Shown: positions 16,726 through 63,325, counted from the stretch's first letter. The stretch: 64,000 nt of DNA from Pyrinomonadaceae bacterium (GCA_041751195.1 JBGSXX010000002.1:35839-99838); one strand, 5' to 3'. The notes: generated by a model not told the origin, from the letters alone. Made by a program: numbers and translations.

Positions 16726-17580
16726 TTAGGACGCTCCGCTACCCGAAGCTCTCTGAATCCGCTGCGGCGTTAAATTGAGAATGTTCTCACCTGCCCGAAC
16801 CGAAACAGGCGAGCTCCATAATGCAAAGCCGTCAGCGGTCTTGGTGATACCGAATAGGTAGTAACTACCGGGTTCGACGTCGCTCATATTGGCTTTCCCG
16901 GCCGAATCAGTCGTTCCGGAATACTCGATGTTCTCGTTGATAGCGTTCATCGCCGAGCGATGAAAATCGCTATACCGGCTAGGATCGAGGACCGCGAGCG
17001 CGAGGCTGTTGGAAAGCGAGTTACCCTCGATCGGCTGTAATCGAGCCTCTCGCAGTATCTGTTCCAAGTCCTTTTCGAGCAAATAGAAACGCTCGTTCCT
17101 TACCGCCTGCGGTGTGCCGTTATCGGAAATTACACGAGCTTCGATACGGACGACCCCGCGATCGGTGTTCACCGACGTCTGGGAGCCCGGTACCGTGGAT
17201 TCACTTGTCGGCATTTCGGGCGGGGGAGCAGGAAGCGCGTCGGATGGAGCGACGTCGCTCGGCGGGATCGCCGATCGTGAATCAGTGGTCATGGTGTCAC
17301 GCGCGGGAGGGGCGCTGGTGTTTACCGCGACCCGGAGGTTTGAATTTGCTGCATCGTCGTCGCGCGACATCATTGCGAAAATGAAAAATATAACGAGTAC
17401 TGCGACTACCCCCATGGCGACGAACGCCCAGGGCGGAATGCCCTCAGAGCGGGGCTCCGTGCGTGCTACGACGGGGCGAACCGGTGGCGGCGCTATGTTG
17501 ACAGGCCTGCCGCAACTTGGGCAAGCGACCGCAGAATCGGAGATATCGTGTCCGCATTCAGGACAGTTTACTAATGGCAT
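16726..17580 (-). CDS. Zinc-ribbon membrane protein with Pro-rich linker and C-terminal beta-sandwich-like domain
   Basis: MPLVNCPECGHDISDSAVACPSCGRPV zinc ribbon, one TM helix and a Pro/Ser-rich linker. AAGGGAGGA RBS. The 21-bp array C lies 160 bp upstream. Confidence 0.7.
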   Translation of the reverse strand: MPLVNCPECGHDISDSAVACPSCGRPVNIAPPPVRPVVARTEPRSEGIPPWAFVAMGVVAVLVIFFIFAMMSRDDDAANSNLRVAVNTSAPPARDTMTTDSRSAIPPSDVAPSDALPAPPPEMPTSESTVPGSQTSVNTDRGVVRIEARVISDNGTPQAVRNERFYLLEKDLEQILREARLQPIEGNSLSNSLALAVLDPSRYSDFHRSAMNAINENIEYSGTTDSAGKANMSDVEPGSYYLFGITKTADGFALWSSPVSVRAGENILNLTPQRIQRASGSGAS

Positions 17581-17740
17581 GGTGTATTTTCCTCCCTTTT
17601 TACCTACTAGCAGGGATCACTGCAAGGTGTATGCCATCAATATGTTAGGGGAGCGATCAGAAACGACGGGCGTGTCTTGCCTCTTTTCCTTTGTTTACTG
17701 GGGTTTGGGCGCAGTCGAGGCGTGTATGAAGGGTTCCGGG

Positions 17741-17866
17741 GGCGCCTGCCGGCTAGCTCCGGGCGCTTGCCGGCTACCTGCCGGCGCCTGCCGGCTATCT
17801 CCCGGCGCTTGCCGGCGACCTCCCGGCGCGTGTCGGACACCTCCCGGCGGCCGTCCGGGCGGATCC
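17741..17866. repeat. Array C: about 6 tandem 21-bp units with a CCGGC-N4-GCCGG dyad
   Basis: Units start at 17741, 17762, 17783, 17804, 17825 and 17846: GGCGC(C/T)TGCCGGCTA.CT.C.; the last two are degenerate. Position 6 alternates C/T. Intergenic, between the aroC stop and the start of 16726..17580. Confidence 0.85.
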
Positions 17867-17936
17867 GACAGCCGGTCGGGCAATGCATCCGGTTAGAATT
17901 CGAGCGGATCTGAACAGCTTCGAAAAAATTTCAGAT

Positions 17937-34461: not shown

Positions 34462-35829
34462 CTAGGCCATTCCGCGGATGGTTTCGAGAACAAAGTCGAT
34501 CTCGGCGGTCGTGTTGACGATCGACGGGGTCAGCCGCGCGTGCGGGAAGGCGTAGGGCGTGACTGATGCGACGATGCCGCGTTCCCCCAGGGCATTGACG
34601 GCGCCGCCGGAGGAATAGCCCGCGACGTCGAAACAGACGATGCCCGCGGAGATGTCTTCGCTTTGCGGCGTGACGAGGTCGACGTGTTCCATTTCGGCGA
34701 GGCCCTGTTTCAGGCGGCTCGCGAGTTCGCGGGTGCGTGCCTCGACGCGGTCTTTGCCGATGTCGAGCATGAAATCGAACGCGTCCGCCATTGCCCATTG
34801 GTGTTCGAAAGGTTTGAAGCCGCCGGGCGTCAGACGTCGGCCGGTCGTGGGGCCGCTGATTCCGCGGCCGGTTATCCAAGCGTTTCGGACGCTATTGTCG
34901 GAGAAAGTGGGGATCGTCGGTTCGATGTTTTCCCAGCCTTTGGCGCTCGCCCAGACGATGCCGGTGCCGCGAGGGCCGAAGAGCCATTTGTGGCAGCCGG
35001 CGGCGAAGTAATCGCATTCCAGATCGGCCATTTCTACGTCCTCGATGCCAAATCCGTGAACGCCGTCGACGGCGAGCAGGATGTTCTGATCGGGCTCGCG
35101 TGTCGCGTTGATCTCGCTGATGCCTCCAGAGATCTGCCGAACGGGGAGCTTGAGGCCGGTGCTCGAATGCACCCAGGTCAGGGCAACGACGCGCGTTTCC
35201 GGGAGGATGGCGTTGAGGATCCGGCTAGTTAGTTCGTCGATTGTGACGGTGTTGATGTCGGAGTACATCGGGATCGTGCGGTAAGTTGCTCCCGATTTCC
35301 CGCATTTGAGGCGGATGGCTTCGTCGGTGGAGTAATAATTTTGCTCGGTGGTCAGAAACTCCTGGCCGGGGCCGATCTTGATGCCGTTATAGATGAGTCC
35401 GAGGCCCATAGTGGTGCTGTCCGTGATCGCAATGTCCTCGTGCGACGCTCCGAGATAGCGGGCGGCCGCACGCAGGGTTTCATCTTCGTTGCCGCTGTTA
35501 TTTTCGTTCAGATAGCCGACCGGGTCGACATCGAGTCCGCGCCTGTGGCGTTCGATAGCCTCGCGGACGGGAGCGGGGTTCGCGGCGATGAGCAGTGCGC
35601 TCATGTGGATCTTGTCGTCGGTTAGCGCGAACTGGCTGCGGACCTTCGCCCAGTCATCGGAATCGGGCTGCTGCGCCGCGACGGGGATCGGCTTGGCAGC
35701 GCGGGTCGACCTTTCGGGCCCGTCGTCCGATCCGCACGCGACGGCCAGAGCCGCGCCGCCCGCGAGAGCAGCCTTGATAAAGTTCCGGCGATCAACACCA
35801 GAAGTGTTTCGATTCGATTCAGTTCGCAC
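34462..35829 (-). CDS. Class V aminotransferase-fold PLP enzyme with Tat signal and lipobox-like Cys
   Basis: ORF 34462..36081, but its N-terminal 84 codons run through repeat array A. An in-frame GTG at 35829 gives MRTESNRNTSGVDRRNFIKAALAGGAALAVACG (twin-Arg motif RRNFIK, then AVAC). The body resembles cysteine desulfurase / isopenicillin-N-epimerase-like enzymes (ALTWVHSSTG, CHKWLFGPRGTG). Confidence 0.7.
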   Translation of the reverse strand: MRTESNRNTSGVDRRNFIKAALAGGAALAVACGSDDGPERSTRAAKPIPVAAQQPDSDDWAKVRSQFALTDDKIHMSALLIAANPAPVREAIERHRRGLDVDPVGYLNENNSGNEDETLRAAARYLGASHEDIAITDSTTMGLGLIYNGIKIGPGQEFLTTEQNYYSTDEAIRLKCGKSGATYRTIPMYSDINTVTIDELTSRILNAILPETRVVALTWVHSSTGLKLPVRQISGGISEINATREPDQNILLAVDGVHGFGIEDVEMADLECDYFAAGCHKWLFGPRGTGIVWASAKGWENIEPTIPTFSDNSVRNAWITGRGISGPTTGRRLTPGGFKPFEHQWAMADAFDFMLDIGKDRVEARTRELASRLKQGLAEMEHVDLVTPQSEDISAGIVCFDVAGYSSGGAVNALGERGIVASVTPYAFPHARLTPSIVNTTAEIDFVLETIRGMA

Positions 35830-35971
35830 GATATGAGTGTCGATTGCAAACGAGGTGCCAACCGAACCACTTCGACCCCGGGTGCGAACGATATCGGTCC
35901 CCGATCCCCCGAGATATGCCCTGTCGACGATGCGGACACAATTTCCCGGGCGACGACCGCCCTCGGACACT

Positions 35972-36243
35972 GCGCACTCACCAGCTGCGTCAGCGCACTC
36001 GTCAGGTGCGTCAGCGCACTCGTCAGGTGCGTTAGCGCACTCTTCAGGTGCGTCAGCGCACTCAGTAGTGCGCCAGCGCACTCAGTAGGTGCGCCAGCGC
36101 ACTCGGTAGGTGCGCCAGCGCATTCGGTAGGTGCGCCAGCGCACTCAGTAGGTGCGCTAACGCACTCGGTAGGTGCGCTAACGCACTCAATAGGTGCGCT
36201 AGCGCACTCGGTAGGTGCGCTAACGCAGCTGATAGGTGCGCGG
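35972..36243. repeat. Array A: 13 tandem units (12 x 21 bp, one 20 bp) with a GTGCG-N4-CGCAC dyad
   Basis: Units start at 35972, 35993, 36014, 36035, 36056 (20 bp), 36076, 36097, 36118, 36139, 36160, 36181, 36202 and 36223. Consensus GCGCACTC(A/G)GTAGGTGCGC(C/T)A. The parse was verified against the translation of ORF 35833..36324. Confidence 0.95.
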
Positions 36244-36259
36244 TCGCTGGGGGCCGTGC

Positions 36260-36288
36260 TTGCGGTGTTTCGAGTGATTTGCTATATT
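36260..36288 (+). promoter_or_regulatory. Sigma70-like promoter candidate for the 228-aa gene (paralogue A)
   Basis: TTGCGG-N17-TATATT, 59 nt upstream of the ATG at 36348. Followed by leader stem-loop GCCTT-N7-AAGGC (36295-36311) and an ACAGGAG box. Confidence 0.45.
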
Positions 36289-36347
36289 CTTTTTGCCTTA
36301 TCATCCAAGGCGCTACCCCAGTAAATACAGGAGCTGCAAGAAAATAG

Positions 36348-37034
36348 ATGCCAGATAAACCTTTACCGAGAGGCGAGGCCGAGCTCGTGATCTTTCTTCA
36401 TGTTTTCAACGCAAAACTAGCTATTCACCACGTTGCTCTGGGCATTTCCGCCGAAGAAGTGGCCCAAATGCAGTTGAATACTGATAATTTTGTCTATCTC
36501 GTGAATCTTTCGAGGCAGGTGCAGGACACGCGTGATGCGTTTGCGCGGTTCAAAGATACGGCGCTGTACGGCGATCTGAACGAGCCGACGCCACACATTC
36601 CGGTGTTTCCCACTGTCGCACCGCCCGAGACCATCAGCACCGGGATCGTTACGTATTTGAAGATGATCATTCGCAAGATGAAGAGCTCGGGGAAGTGGAC
36701 ACGGCAGCTCGCGGAGGAATTTGGGCTGTGGACGGATGATCCCTCGCCGAATCCTGCGTCGATCACTCCTGTGCTGTCGGGCTGGGCGTTGCCGATGGGC
36801 GAGGTCGCGATCAAATTCCTCAAATATCGGCGCGAGGGCATTCGCCTTGAGCAGCGAATGAGGGGGGAGCAAACGTGGACGAGCCTCGGGAACTTTACGA
36901 AGTCTCCGATCATCCTGGGACCGGGCGGCAAAAACGGCGATCCGATCGCCTTCGAATTCCGCGCACGCTTCACCGAAAACGACAAACCCGTCGGCAACTT
37001 CTCATCAGTCATGACCGTCATCACAACGCCCTAG
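36348..37034 (+). CDS. Hypothetical 228-aa protein, paralogue A (helical N-domain plus FN3-like C-domain; family not recognised)
   Basis: An in-frame TAG lies immediately before the ATG. Aligns without gaps to 60912..61598, with 119/228 identical positions by hand count. The C-terminal ~95 aa follow an FN3-like pattern (...W..L...; FEFRARF; PVGNFSSVMTVITTP). No signal peptide. Confidence 0.8.
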   Translation: MPDKPLPRGEAELVIFLHVFNAKLAIHHVALGISAEEVAQMQLNTDNFVYLVNLSRQVQDTRDAFARFKDTALYGDLNEPTPHIPVFPTVAPPETISTGIVTYLKMIIRKMKSSGKWTRQLAEEFGLWTDDPSPNPASITPVLSGWALPMGEVAIKFLKYRREGIRLEQRMRGEQTWTSLGNFTKSPIILGPGGKNGDPIAFEFRARFTENDKPVGNFSSVMTVITTP

Positions 37035-60120: not shown

Positions 60121-60774
60121 TTACTCATCATCGAAATTATCTCTGGCGACTACGAGAGGCTCGATCAAAGAAACGAGTTCTCTTAACTCCTTTTCATTTT
60201 TGTCCGTTTTTTCTTTGCGGTTTCTGTAACGGGTATATACTTTCGCGCGGCCTTTGATGAAATGAAGCCCGACGTCGGTCAGCGCGGTATTCGCGTAAAC
60301 GTTTTTAACCAGAACGGCCTCGTCTCCTACTTCACGAACCTTGATAAAATCTCCCATTGAAATAAAATCCAAACTTCTCCAGAAATCCTCACTCATTCCT
60401 TTTTTAGCGAGCCTTAAGTTAATGACTAGAAATAGATTCTTTTGCTTGCCATTCTGCCAGGATATTTCGTTTACCGTGCTGCCCCGCTCTCCCGGCGGCA
60501 TCGAAATCAAATGCGACGCACGTTTATTTTTTAGCTTATATTTAGGCTTTTCTTTGGCCATAATTTCTATAATATCTTCCTGAATCCGCTGAGCCTCAGC
60601 AAAAGCCATGTCAACCTTTTCCTGCGGAACATTCTTGTCACGTTCCAGCAGGTTCTGCCGCCCTTCGTCAGGAACCTGGGCGATGCTGATACTCGCCGAA
60701 CCGATCCCCAGATAACAAAGGGCCACCAAAGCGAAGAGTGTCGCGGTCACGGCGCGGCAATCGATCTTATTCAT
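60121..60774 (-). CDS. Hypothetical secreted protein (AT-rich ORFan)
   Basis: ORF 60121..60789 (TTG); I preferred the ATG at 60774 (MNKIDCRAVTATLFALVALCYLGIGSASISIAQV signal). Hand counts on two 60-nt lines give 35-38% G+C, versus about 60% in a flanking housekeeping line. Confidence 0.6.
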   Translation of the reverse strand: MNKIDCRAVTATLFALVALCYLGIGSASISIAQVPDEGRQNLLERDKNVPQEKVDMAFAEAQRIQEDIIEIMAKEKPKYKLKNKRASHLISMPPGERGSTVNEISWQNGKQKNLFLVINLRLAKKGMSEDFWRSLDFISMGDFIKVREVGDEAVLVKNVYANTALTDVGLHFIKGRAKVYTRYRNRKEKTDKNEKELRELVSLIEPLVVARDNFDDE

Positions 60775-60859
60775 TGTTCCTAGCTCCAAATTGCGTTTGC
60801 GTGCCCAGACCTGTGATGCCCGGGGATTTGGTCATGATAGCACGGGCCACAAACAACAA

Positions 60860-60911: not shown

Positions 60912-61598
60912 TTACGGCGTTGTTACGACCGTGATTACTGCTGAGAAGTTGCCGACGGGGCTGTCCTTCTCGGTGTATCGGGCTCGAAACTCGACGATCT
61001 GGGGCTGGCCGGTCTCAGACGGCGGAGTAAATTTGATGGGCGACGTCGTCCAACGACCCAAGTTCTTCCACTCCGATTCGCCCTTAAAACGCCATTCGAG
61101 CTGAATGCCCTGACGCCCGTTTTTGCGATACCGGACTTCAAGCTCACCCAGCGGCAAGGCGGTAGCCGTAAGCACCGGCATATTCGATTCGGGGTCCGGC
61201 GACGGATGATCAGACCAAAGGCCAAACTCTTCCGCCATCTGATTCGTGTATTTCGTCGTACTCTTCATCTTCCGAATGAGCAATTTCGCGTAAGTAATGA
61301 TCCCCGGCTCGCCGGCTTCCGGCAAGTTGATAGCCGGGAATGCAGGCGTGGGAGGTGTCGCACCGTCAACATCGCCATAAAGCATCGTCTGCTTAAAATC
61401 GGTAAACGCTTCACGCGTATCCGCCACCTGTTGGTTAACGTTAATGAGGAAGGTGAGATTCGCGACATGATTAGCCATCATCGCGATCTCTGTGGGGCTT
61501 ATTCCAAGCGAAGGTCCGTAAGTAACGAGCTTCTCTTGGAAGTTAACGAAAAAGGGAACGAGTTCTGATTCAACTCGCGGTATCTGTTTGTCAGGCAT
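60912..61598 (-). CDS. Hypothetical 228-aa protein, paralogue B (same family as 36348..37034)
   Basis: Same length as paralogue A and aligns to it without gaps, with about 52% identity by hand count. Shared blocks are MPDK..PR.E.ELV, LGIS, IRKMKS, AEEFGLW, FRAR.TE.D.PVGNFS and TTP at the C-terminus. Confidence 0.8.
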   Translation of the reverse strand: MPDKQIPRVESELVPFFVNFQEKLVTYGPSLGISPTEIAMMANHVANLTFLINVNQQVADTREAFTDFKQTMLYGDVDGATPPTPAFPAINLPEAGEPGIITYAKLLIRKMKSTTKYTNQMAEEFGLWSDHPSPDPESNMPVLTATALPLGELEVRYRKNGRQGIQLEWRFKGESEWKNLGRWTTSPIKFTPPSETGQPQIVEFRARYTEKDSPVGNFSAVITVVTTP

Positions 61599-61664
61599 AG
61601 TGCTAACTTATAACTCCTGTTCTTAGTTTTATATGAAATTTGCCTCGGGTGACGTGGCAAAGAA

Positions 61665-61694
61665 AATATACCAAAAATGTTTTGGTAGTTGCAA
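61665..61694 (-). promoter_or_regulatory. Sigma70-like promoter candidate for paralogue B
   Basis: The minus strand reads TTGCAA-N18-TATATT, 66 nt upstream of the ATG at 61598. Followed by leader stem-loop TTTGCC-N11-GGCAAA (61661-61639) and an ACAGGAG box, the same layout as paralogue A. Confidence 0.45.
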
Positions 61695-61781
61695 CTAGAT
61701 TTTACGTCTCGGCAAGATCGCTTGCGCCCACGGCCGGAATCGGCTCCCCGAACGCAATAAAATAGGCCATATCTGCGGCTT

Positions 61782-62179
61782 TGCAACTCCGACTTGCGCG
61801 ATTGCAAATCCAGTCTGCGACGTTGCAAATCCAATCTGCGCGATTGCAAATCCAATCTGCAACGTTGCAAGTCCAATCTGCGCGATTGCAAATCCAATCT
61901 GCAACGCTGCAAATCCAATTTGCGCGACTGCAAATCCAATCTGCGAGGTTGCAAATCCAATCTGCAACGCTGCAATCCAATCTGCGCGATTGCAAATCCA
62001 ATTTGCGACGTTGCAAATTCAATCTGCGCGATTGCAAATCCAATTTGCGAGGTTGCAAATCCAATCTGCAACGCTGCAACTCCAATCTGCGCGATTGCAA
62101 ATCCAATTTGCGACGTTGCAAATCCGATCTGCGCGATTGCAAATCCAATCTGCGCGAGCGCAATTCCGACCTGCGCGGG
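61782..62179. repeat. Array B: 19 tandem units (18 x 21 bp, one 20 bp) with an AT(C/T)TGC-N6-GCAAAT dyad
   Basis: Plus-strand consensus TGCAAATCCAATCTGC(G/A)NNNN. The first unit starts at 61782. The 20-bp unit is at 61971-61990. The last two units are degenerate. The parse was verified against the translation of ORF 61781..62272. Confidence 0.95.
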
Positions 62180-62308
62180 CGCAAATGGGTGGGGCTTGCC
62201 CAGAAGAAGCCGCCTAAAGGCGGGATTTTTAACGGGCGGCGGGTCCGGTGGCTTAAGCCAACTGGAATTTAGAGGAAGGGCCCGTGGAGGCCCTTCTGCT
62301 GTCGGCGT

Positions 62309-63325
62309 TTATTTGGTGGTGGCTTTGGTTTTGGGTTTGGGCGGTGATTTTTTTGCGGCTCGGGGGGCTTTTGGTTTTTTTGCCGGGGCGGTGGGGTTTA
62401 GGAGGGAGGTCCAGTGGTAGTTGGGTTGGTCCCAGCCGGTTTTAAGTTTGTTGAGGATGAAGTCGGTCATGGCGTCGACTATCCAGCGGTGGTTGTATTC
62501 GCCGACGGAGGCGAGTTCGGCGTCGGGGGCCGGGTTCATAAAGTCGATGGCGTAGGGGATGCCGTCTTTGATCGCGAATTCGACGGTGTTGAGGTCATAG
62601 CCGAGCGCTTTGCAGATGGTGATGACGTCCTGTTCGACGCGCTGGTGGAGTTCGGGCGTGAGGTAATCCTCGACGTTTACGTACTGCATGCCGGAAAGGT
62701 ACGGCTTAGAGGGGTCGTAGGGCATGATCAGGACTTTCTCTTGCCCGACGCAGTAGCAGCGGACGAACTGGTCGTATTCGATGCCTTCCTGCAGGGTCAT
62801 GCAGAGCGTGCCGGACTTGTTGTACTCCTCGAAAAGCTGTTCGAGCGTGTGGATCTTTGAGACGTTCTTCCATCCGCCGCCGTCGAAGGGTTTGAGGAAC
62901 GCGGGGAAGCCGACGTAATTGACGATGCCTTCCCAGTCGAGGGGGAATTCGAGGTTGCGGAGCGATTCGCTCGTGATGTCTTTGATATAGCTGTGCTGCG
63001 GGAGGAGCACGGTCTTCGGGATCGCGACGCCGATCTTTGCGGCGAGCGAGAAATTGAAGAACTTGTCATCGGCGGACCACCAGAAGGGGTTGTTGATGAC
63101 CAAAGTGCCCTCAAGCGCCATGCGTTTGAGCATTGCGCGATAGTAGGGGATCTCGTGCGAGATGCGGTCGATGATGACGTCGTAACGCTTCGTCTCGTCA
63201 AGGCGGATGCCGCCGACCTTTACCATTTCGGCAACGACCTCGCCGCCGCCTTTTTCGTTGATGCTGTTGATTATCGATTCGGGGAAGGTGACCTCGCGGC
63301 CGACCAAAATACCTACGCGTTTCAT
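62309..63325 (-). CDS. ATP-grasp fold protein with a Lys/Pro/Ala-rich C-terminal tail
   Basis: 338 aa. The layout resembles RimK / inositol-phosphate-kinase-type ATP-grasp enzymes (FPAFLKPFDGGGWKNV; NTVEFAIKDGIPYAIDFMNPAPDAE). Tail NPTAPAKKPKAPRAAKKSPPKPKTKATTK. Confidence 0.6.
   Translation of the reverse strand: MKRVGILVGREVTFPESIINSINEKGGGEVVAEMVKVGGIRLDETKRYDVIIDRISHEIPYYRAMLKRMALEGTLVINNPFWWSADDKFFNFSLAAKIGVAIPKTVLLPQHSYIKDITSESLRNLEFPLDWEGIVNYVGFPAFLKPFDGGGWKNVSKIHTLEQLFEEYNKSGTLCMTLQEGIEYDQFVRCYCVGQEKVLIMPYDPSKPYLSGMQYVNVEDYLTPELHQRVEQDVITICKALGYDLNTVEFAIKDGIPYAIDFMNPAPDAELASVGEYNHRWIVDAMTDFILNKLKTGWDQPNYHWTSLLNPTAPAKKPKAPRAAKKSPPKPKTKATTK

Follow-up and report, generated by a model that had tools for sequence, protein, structure and literature searches.

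Iteron plasmids such as pPS10, R6K, RK2 and P1 carry direct repeats of approximately 17–22 bp, placed about two helical turns apart, upstream of an autoregulated rep promoter. At rep promoters under iteron control, an inverted partial copy of the repeat is found at the promoter. Plasmid centromeres, such as parC/ParR of R1 and pSK41 and sopC/SopB, are composed of phased direct repeats beside the promoter of the operon for the binding protein, and these arrays are system-specific. The hmw genes of Haemophilus influenzae have promoter-proximal, variable-number repeats of 7 bp, which tune expression; these repeats are short and species-specific, and they are not linked to any single family of proteins. 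In type III toxin-antitoxin systems (toxIN, cptIN, tenpIN), a tandem array is followed by a short palindrome and a gene, with the arrays being cognate-specific and unrelated between systems (PMC3401426). The type III repeats are 31–62 nt in length and occur in 1.9–5.6 copies, with the promoter upstream of the array and a terminator after it (PMC3401426). The locus described here, termed module B, lies in a 64,000-nt stretch of DNA from a Pyrinomonadaceae bacterium (the window; all coordinates are counted from its first letter). It consists of an array of 19 tandem units with a 21-bp period (array B), a predicted promoter, a leader hairpin and a gene for an uncharacterized 228-aa protein. A second such module with a paralogous gene, module A, is present in the same window.

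The linkage between a 21-bp-period array and this gene is strongly supported across a very large uncharacterized protein family that spans at least two phyla. A full-text literature search on bacterial 21-bp arrays returned no description of the array–gene pairing.

Organization of the Two Modules

The features of module B, in the direction of its gene, are as follows.

Array B: 61782–62179, minus strand, 19 tandem units, 18 of 21 bp and one of 20 bp at 61971–61990 (Tandem Repeats Finder (TRF), unit table and autocorrelation)
Promoter-like element B: 61665–61694, minus strand, TTGCAA-18-TGgTATATT with a predicted extended -10 (consensus scan)
Leader hairpin B: 61639–61661, minus strand, UUUGCC...GGCAAA, located approximately at the predicted mRNA 5′ end (fold)
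Shine–Dalgarno sequence AGGAG: 61614–61618, minus strand, after the leader hairpin
Paralogue B: 60912–61598, minus strand, open reading frame (ORF) of 228 aa

The unit table given in the preliminary description of this DNA is reproduced by cutting the sequence from 61782, including the position of the 20-bp unit and the end of the array at 62179, and the units that begin at 61991 and 62096 are indeed identical. TRF calls the array at 61781–62177 with a period of 21, 19.0 copies and a score of 465. A second TRF period of 42 bp (85% matches) gives a higher identity than that at 21. The plus-strand consensus is TGCAAATCCAATCTGC followed by 5 variable nt; in the gene-sense direction, each unit is formed by a core, GCAGATTGGATTTGCA, and a 5-nt variable spacer. 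The spacers are of two types that alternate with a 42-bp (two-unit) period, and it is this alternation that creates the 42-bp super-period. A triplet of unit variants had been reported to recur along the array; this is only approximately the case, the real regularity being the two-unit alternation of spacers. Array B is the longest array seen in the family survey.

The TTGCAA-N18-TATATT promoter-like site was recovered by the consensus scan 87 bp downstream of array B in the gene-sense direction, with a TG just upstream. Its predicted -35 hexamer (61694–61689), TTGCAA, is also found on the minus strand in most of the 19 units, so array B offers many extra -35-like sites. The proposed leader stem-loop is present at 61661–61639, and many homologous loci have a hairpin in the equivalent place, but its fold (-9.8 kcal/mol) is not significant when taken alone (z = -1.0).

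Module A has the same order of parts on the opposite strand.

Array A: 35972–36241, plus strand, 12 units of 21 bp including one 20-bp unit, unit AGCGCAC-N7-GTGCGCT (TRF and unit table)
Promoter-like element A: 36260–36288, plus strand, TTGCGG-17-TGcTATATT, predicted, 18 bp past array A (read from the sequence)
Paralogue A: 36348–37034, plus strand, 228 aa

The 228-aa product of the gene behind array B is, as had been stated, a paralogue of the array A gene product, and the two are 52% identical over their full length with no gaps. The unit sequences of the two arrays are unrelated. The unit table upholds the likeness noted between them, namely a 21-bp period and exactly one 20-bp unit in each. 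The predicted TGnTATATT element of module B is also kept at module A and at L002, the orthologous locus of module A. Promoter A as a whole falls under the threshold of the consensus scan because its -35 hexamer is poor, and it is kept in L002. Sliding autocorrelation over the 64-kb window detects just three periodic regions (17664–17916, 35889–36291 and 61699–62229), all of them at lag 21/42, which indicates that the arrays are real and far from chance. A third copy of the family gene was looked for in the window and none was found.

Conservation of the Array and Its Gene

The preliminary description proposed that homologues of the 228-aa protein be surveyed for upstream arrays. The survey covered 72 non-redundant homologous loci with at least 250 bp of upstream sequence, with lags of 5–45 bp being tested. 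The best upstream lag is 21 or 42 bp in 68 of the 72 loci, as opposed to 8 of 77 control segments, and none of these eight reaches 55% identity. TRF reports an array in 57/72, its period being 21 bp or a multiple thereof, and approximately 20% of loci show decayed periodicity only. Of the periodic segments within 1 kb upstream of the genes (64 kb in total), 119 of 123 lie at lag 21, 42 or 63, the corresponding figure in 261 kb of other sequence being one of 13. The suggested link between array and gene is borne out by these figures, and the two form a conserved unit in which the repeat sequence differs by locus.

The copy number of the arrays has a median of 9.6 units and a range of 2.6–19.3. 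The distance from the array end to the start codon has a median of 101 bp (10th–90th percentile, 49–340 bp), which puts the arrays at the core promoter or immediately before it. Several loci have just 36–50 bp between the array and the start codon. An all-against-all BLAST of the ORFs flanking the loci revealed no other conserved neighbour gene; the unit is therefore made up of the array, the promoter and the gene.

A scan of the GTDB representative genomes with a narrow query returned a sole relative, the L002 locus of a Blastocatellia metagenome-assembled genome (MAG). This is the syntenic orthologue of module A, with 82% protein identity, and has seven 21-bp units, which lie 101 bp ahead of its start codon. 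In metagenomes, the narrow alignment A1 recovered no loci, and the sub-alignment A4 yielded 80 further ones. Distant homologues with a 21-bp-period upstream array occur in a Pyrinomonadaceae MAG, two Verrucomicrobiia MAGs and two metagenomes, and their units are unrelated. The contig of one distant homologue begins inside its array. The pairing is thus seen in the Acidobacteriota (the window, L002 of the Blastocatellia and L006 of the Pyrinomonadaceae) and in the Verrucomicrobiia (L004 and L005).

A number of short-read contigs end in or beside an array (L001, which starts 220 bp before the gene; L007, 1–87; L020, 1–113; L030, 1–215). The arrays thus break assemblies, and array lengths taken from metagenomes are underestimates. 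At L080, an array with a 42-bp period (971–1083) is located 34 bp downstream of the family gene, at the contig end. Past the end of the contig, a second family gene may follow in tandem, with this array lying upstream of it. The L002 locus also differs from the window in its flank: the class-V aminotransferase gene divergent from module A (34462–35790 in the window) is cut in L002 (3347–3637) to its C-terminal portion of approximately 60 codons. The remnant is fused directly to the conserved upstream region, representing an internal deletion relative to the window.

Anatomy and Turnover of the Units

Each unit is composed of an invariant core of approximately 8–16 bp and a contiguous variable block. 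The variable blocks are 5–10 nt in length and are drawn from few recurring variants, with the units arranged head-to-tail. Super-periods of 42, 63, 84 or 126 bp are common across the loci; growth by multi-unit duplication, as had been suggested for array B, fits the widespread occurrence of those at 42, 63 and 84 bp. The units of array A are 86% identical to each other and those of L002 are 91% identical, with the two consensus units matching at 15 of 21 positions. Between these two arrays, the palindrome TGCGCYAGCGCA is kept and 5–6 of the 9 spacer positions differ. As units are more alike within arrays than between the orthologous consensus units, concerted evolution is indicated. Copy number also differs between close relatives, with 8.7 vs 9.7 units in one case and at least 10 vs 14.9 in another.

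Several subfamilies share a predicted TGn-extended -10 and, immediately ahead of the ribosome-binding site, a short hairpin. An inverted copy of the unit between the array and the promoter is significant in six loci (L009, L024, L086, L029, L043 and L072). It is absent from modules A and B, and such a copy was rejected as a universal feature of the promoter.

Further repeats accompany some of the arrays. In two related loci, L025 (1190–1242 and 1392–1430) and L034 (589–678), a different 21-bp repeat family flanks the main array on both sides. This second family reads CGCAACAGCGCGGTG... and has palindromic CGTCACAGCG-N3-CGCTGTGACG copies. Tandem repeats of 7 bp are found at the edges of family genes in L049 (2947–2995, TTCTAAA x 7, just ahead of the start codon), L003 (1831–1900) and L025 (2209–2253), and some of these directly follow stop codons. 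The opposed 7-mer runs of L003 form a long hairpin that gives spurious miRNA matches in Rfam.

The Protein Family

An exhaustive profile search places 1,236 cluster representatives (at 50% identity) in the family at E <= 1e-3, and 434 at E <= 1e-10. Nearly all members are 225–235 residues in length. Neither paralogue nor any of 101 homologues has a Pfam match, and profile searches of NCBIfam, PHROGs, PADLOC and PDB sequences gave no match to the family. No signal peptide or membrane segment is visible in the sequence of the 228-aa protein. A phage origin was considered and rejected, as relatives were absent from 50,697 phage records and from the IMG/VR contigs.

The AlphaFold2 (AF2) model of paralogue B, built from the family alignment, has a predicted local distance difference test score (pLDDT) of 94. 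In this model, the N-terminal part is formed by helices at residues 10–27 and 35–74, an extended proline-rich segment (75–99) and helices at 100–113 and 119–125. The C-terminal part (142–228) is a seven-stranded sandwich resembling a fibronectin type III (Fn3) domain. Only this C-terminal part finds matches in Foldseek searches of PDB and BFVD, and these are to Fn3 domains.

Proposed Role of the Array

The arrays adjoin the promoter, keep an exact two-turn register, combine a conserved core with a free spacer and bear no coding or strand-specific signature. These properties are best fitted by a double-stranded array of binding sites, and the reading tentatively favoured here is that of an iteron-like, cis-regulatory array whose sites are phased at two helical turns. 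The module would be read in the order of array, extended -10 promoter, 5′ leader hairpin and gene of approximately 230 aa. The array would act as double-stranded DNA, presenting sequence-specific sites, each with an 8–16-bp core and a variable spacer, two helical turns apart. Cooperative binding beside the promoter, with the bound factors aligned along the same face of the helix, would set the expression of the downstream gene. Such an arrangement would be akin to iterons or operator arrays. Fast turnover through multi-unit duplication and homogenization would let the sequence drift between lineages with the 21-bp register being kept. The block-wise variation beside an invariant core is as expected for binding sites. 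A protein presumably binds the array, and its binding would regulate transcription. It may be speculated that the binder is the adjacent gene product, since this is the sole consistently linked gene, and the two paralogues with unrelated arrays would fit a private recognition by each.

Several observations weigh against this proposal. The preliminary description regarded dyad symmetry as a rule shared by the arrays; dyads are only modestly enriched (within-unit complementarity of 5.72 vs 5.21 of 10 pairs in shuffled controls, p = 6e-4), many arrays lack them altogether, and universal dyad symmetry has been rejected. The spacing of array and predicted promoter is not constant, with 18 bp separating them in module A and 87 bp in module B. 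Where proteins are 80–82% identical, their arrays may share only a core of approximately 8 nt (ATCGTCCA in L009, L024 and L030). The differences among such proteins are scattered, with no concentrated specificity region. No recognizable DNA-binding domain was found in the 228-aa protein by Pfam, Foldseek or the AF2 model, and the N-terminal helical domain, when modelled alone (pLDDT 89), has no Foldseek match (best E = 4.2). Family members have an average net charge of -1.9, which makes them slightly acidic, and are basic only in the helix at 100–126. The orphan array described below also weakens the case for the 228-aa protein as the sole partner and keeps alive the notion of a general factor.

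A stronger form of the favoured proposal would make the protein of approximately 230 aa and its private, fast-evolving 21-bp satellite an unrecognized and widespread single-gene module. The protein, with its new helical domain and its Fn3 domain, would then recognize its array by means of a new nucleic-acid-binding fold and assemble into a phased filament, each 21 bp being occupied by one subunit or dimer, and paralogues would be orthogonal through the divergence of their arrays. This form is considered rather unlikely.

Alternative Explanations

It is possible, if doubtful, that the array is an architectural or tunable element with no dedicated binder. The 21-bp register would provide a shape or a landing pad for a nucleoid protein or RNA polymerase, and the copy number would act as a promoter rheostat. 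A period that is conserved when the sequence is not would be expected of such an element, and the differing copy numbers of close relatives and an adjacent protein unlike a DNA binder are also in its favour. A further point in its support is the third array of the window, which precedes an unrelated gene.

Orphan array: 17741–17849, minus strand, approximately five units of 21 bp, GGGAGGTAGCCGGCAGGCGCC in the gene sense

This array is located approximately 160 bp upstream of an unrelated gene for a zinc-ribbon membrane protein (16726–17580, minus strand). Arrays of 21 bp occurring irrespective of the gene family had been named beforehand as an argument against the link; the orphan array is one such case, and 21-bp arrays are consequently not strictly exclusive to the family. 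The array is missing from the orthologous loci L088–L092. In four orthologous loci, the spacer between aroC and the zinc-ribbon gene is just 60–150 bp and holds no array, so the orphan array is seen as a lineage-specific insertion rather than a second conserved association.

Other evidence opposes an architectural element. Phasing alone would permit periods of 10–11 or 31–32 bp, but these are not seen. The well-conserved core of the units implies selection at the sequence level or a very recent homogenization. Curvature was estimated by a dinucleotide wedge model, which is weak evidence. The model predicts curvature above that of aperiodic shuffles and below that of random 21-bp-periodic sequences, with arrays A and B being essentially straight. 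Intrinsic curvature is accordingly not supported as an explanation, there being no excess over random periodic 21-mers.

A role at the RNA level is improbable. The transcribed array could serve as a type III-like RNA antitoxin, sequester the downstream protein as a sponge, or form mini-hairpins along a long leader, such hairpins having been proposed for the minus-strand RNA of array B. Array B does fold much better in the sense direction (-197.6 vs -144.1 kcal/mol for the antisense; z = -10), as the G-U pair pointed out beforehand would suggest, and the arrays that end 36–50 bp before the start codon could be accommodated by such a role. However, there is no strand preference family-wide: of 50 arrays, 24 fold better as the sense strand and 26 as the antisense. 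Inside dyads, G:T and A:C appositions number 188 and 212, respectively, and the sense-strand skews are -0.02 (GC) and +0.04 (AT). On these grounds, a function as sense-RNA hairpins is not supported across the family. A known RNA family was rejected, Rfam searches of the window and five loci having given no relevant match. The leader hairpins of the loci lack U-tracts, and the protein shows neither a relationship to ToxN, CptN or TenpN nor a nuclease fold.

The position of the promoters also disfavours an RNA-level role. A predicted extended -10 is located between array and gene in modules A and B, L002 and the L009 group, and the consensus scan predicts no promoter upstream of array A or B. 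Just ahead of array B in the gene sense, there is a further hairpin.

Terminator-like hairpin: 62210–62223, minus strand, CCGCCTTTAGGCGG, belonging to the upstream 338-aa gene

This hairpin argues against read-through into array B from the 338-aa gene.

That the array is a functionless, neutral satellite in an upstream region prone to tandem duplication is held to be quite improbable. The fast turnover, the satellite-like super-periods and the share of loci with decayed periodicity are all in keeping with such an origin. Slippage nevertheless leaves unexplained the exact 21-bp period across phyla, at protein identities down to approximately 25%, and the constant placement beside the promoter.

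Heptad-repeat coding, in which 21 bp would equal seven codons and the array would be part of an upstream ORF possibly coupled to the gene, is rejected as extremely improbable: one frame of module A and L002 does read C-A-S-A-(L/V)-(S/G)-R to a TAG overlapping the ATG, that of L002 being open and ending TAG-ATG with some of the differences from array A synonymous, and a frame is open on the sense strand of 41 of the 50 arrays vs 33 on the antisense, but any repeat whose period is a multiple of 3 can be expected to have a stop-free frame by chance, 9–16 arrays have stops in every sense frame, none of 39 shows 3-nt periodicity in unit variation (p < 0.05), both window arrays hold a frame-breaking 20-bp unit, and the arrays lie upstream of predicted promoters. 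In public gene annotations and mechanical ORF lists, ORFs with heptad repeats are called on the arrays at L003 (288–518), L007 (2–244) and in the window (61702–62184, minus strand; 35833–36324, plus strand). The resulting heptad-repeat “proteins” are almost certainly artefacts of a stop-free 21-bp unit.

Neighbouring Features

The genes flanking module B have no Pfam match. The first (60121–60789, minus strand) encodes a 222-aa protein with a hydrophobic N-terminal segment, and the second (62309–63325, minus strand) encodes the 338-aa protein, which has a lysine/proline-rich tail.

At the orphan array, a conserved sigma-54-type motif, TGGCA-N7-TTGCA, is situated just upstream of the start codon of the zinc-ribbon gene (window 17600–17640, minus strand: TGGCATACACCTTGCA). 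The motif is also present in orthologues (L088, 2098–2168; L089, 2441–2500; L090, 2440–2500). The orphan array lies approximately 100–200 bp upstream of it, a location typical of enhancers and upstream activating sequences.

Significance

The family extends over the Acidobacteriota, the Verrucomicrobiota and many uncultured lineages of soil, sediment and freshwater. At least 1,236 clusters of this unnamed family share a signature that is easily scored, i.e., a fixed 21-bp period with free sequence, and this provides an experimental handle on a large block of uncharacterized proteins. The general question raised is what holds a repeat length constant over deep divergence as its sequence changes. 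Should the protein bind its own array, it would represent a new DNA- or RNA-binding fold with natural, orthogonal protein–site pairs. Otherwise, the arrays would suggest a novel type of promoter-proximal architectural element. On the practical side, the arrays break short-read assemblies and are annotated by gene callers with spurious heptad-repeat ORFs.

Comparison with Known Systems

The resemblance to iterons lies in tandem repeats directly upstream of the predicted promoter of a gene of approximately 230–350 aa, in a repeat sequence that is system-specific and, in some family loci, in an inverted partial copy of the unit near the promoter. Unlike the proteins of iteron replicons, the family protein has no Rep_3 or winged-helix (WH1-WH2) domain according to Pfam (101 members), AF2 and Foldseek. 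The family loci are chromosomal and are set among housekeeping genes (clpP, clpX, aroC), with two copies within 25 kb. They have up to 19 repeats, and no replication or partition genes nearby or origin features.

As in plasmid centromeres, a phased repeat array adjoins the promoter of the linked gene and the sequences are system-specific. The family loci differ in having no gene for an NTPase of the ParA, ParM or TubZ type, no ribbon-helix-helix (RHH) or helix-turn-helix (HTH) protein and a unit that is fixed at 21 bp family-wide.

The order of array, short hairpin and gene is outwardly like that of type III toxin-antitoxin systems, the family hairpins being devoid of U-tracts and located downstream of the predicted promoter. 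In contrast to type III arrays, the units measure 21 bp, and their copy number has a median of 9.6 and reaches 19. The predicted promoter is between the array and the gene with none predicted upstream, and there is no strand signature. The protein is not ToxN-, CptN- or TenpN-like (no Pfam or PADLOC match), its fold being helical with an Fn3 domain. CRISPR and TIGR-like arrays are also dissimilar, as the family units are head-to-tail with a variable block of 5–10 nt drawn from few variants, and no cas- or Nop-like genes were found.

It is thought rather doubtful that the module is categorically new, as opposed to a set of phased promoter repeat arrays of a familiar sort. The hmw repeats of H. 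influenzae resemble the family arrays in being tandem repeats just upstream of a promoter, a predicted one in the family loci, with a copy number that differs among close relatives. Unlike the hmw repeats, the family arrays hold one period, though not one sequence, across phyla and are tied to one protein family.

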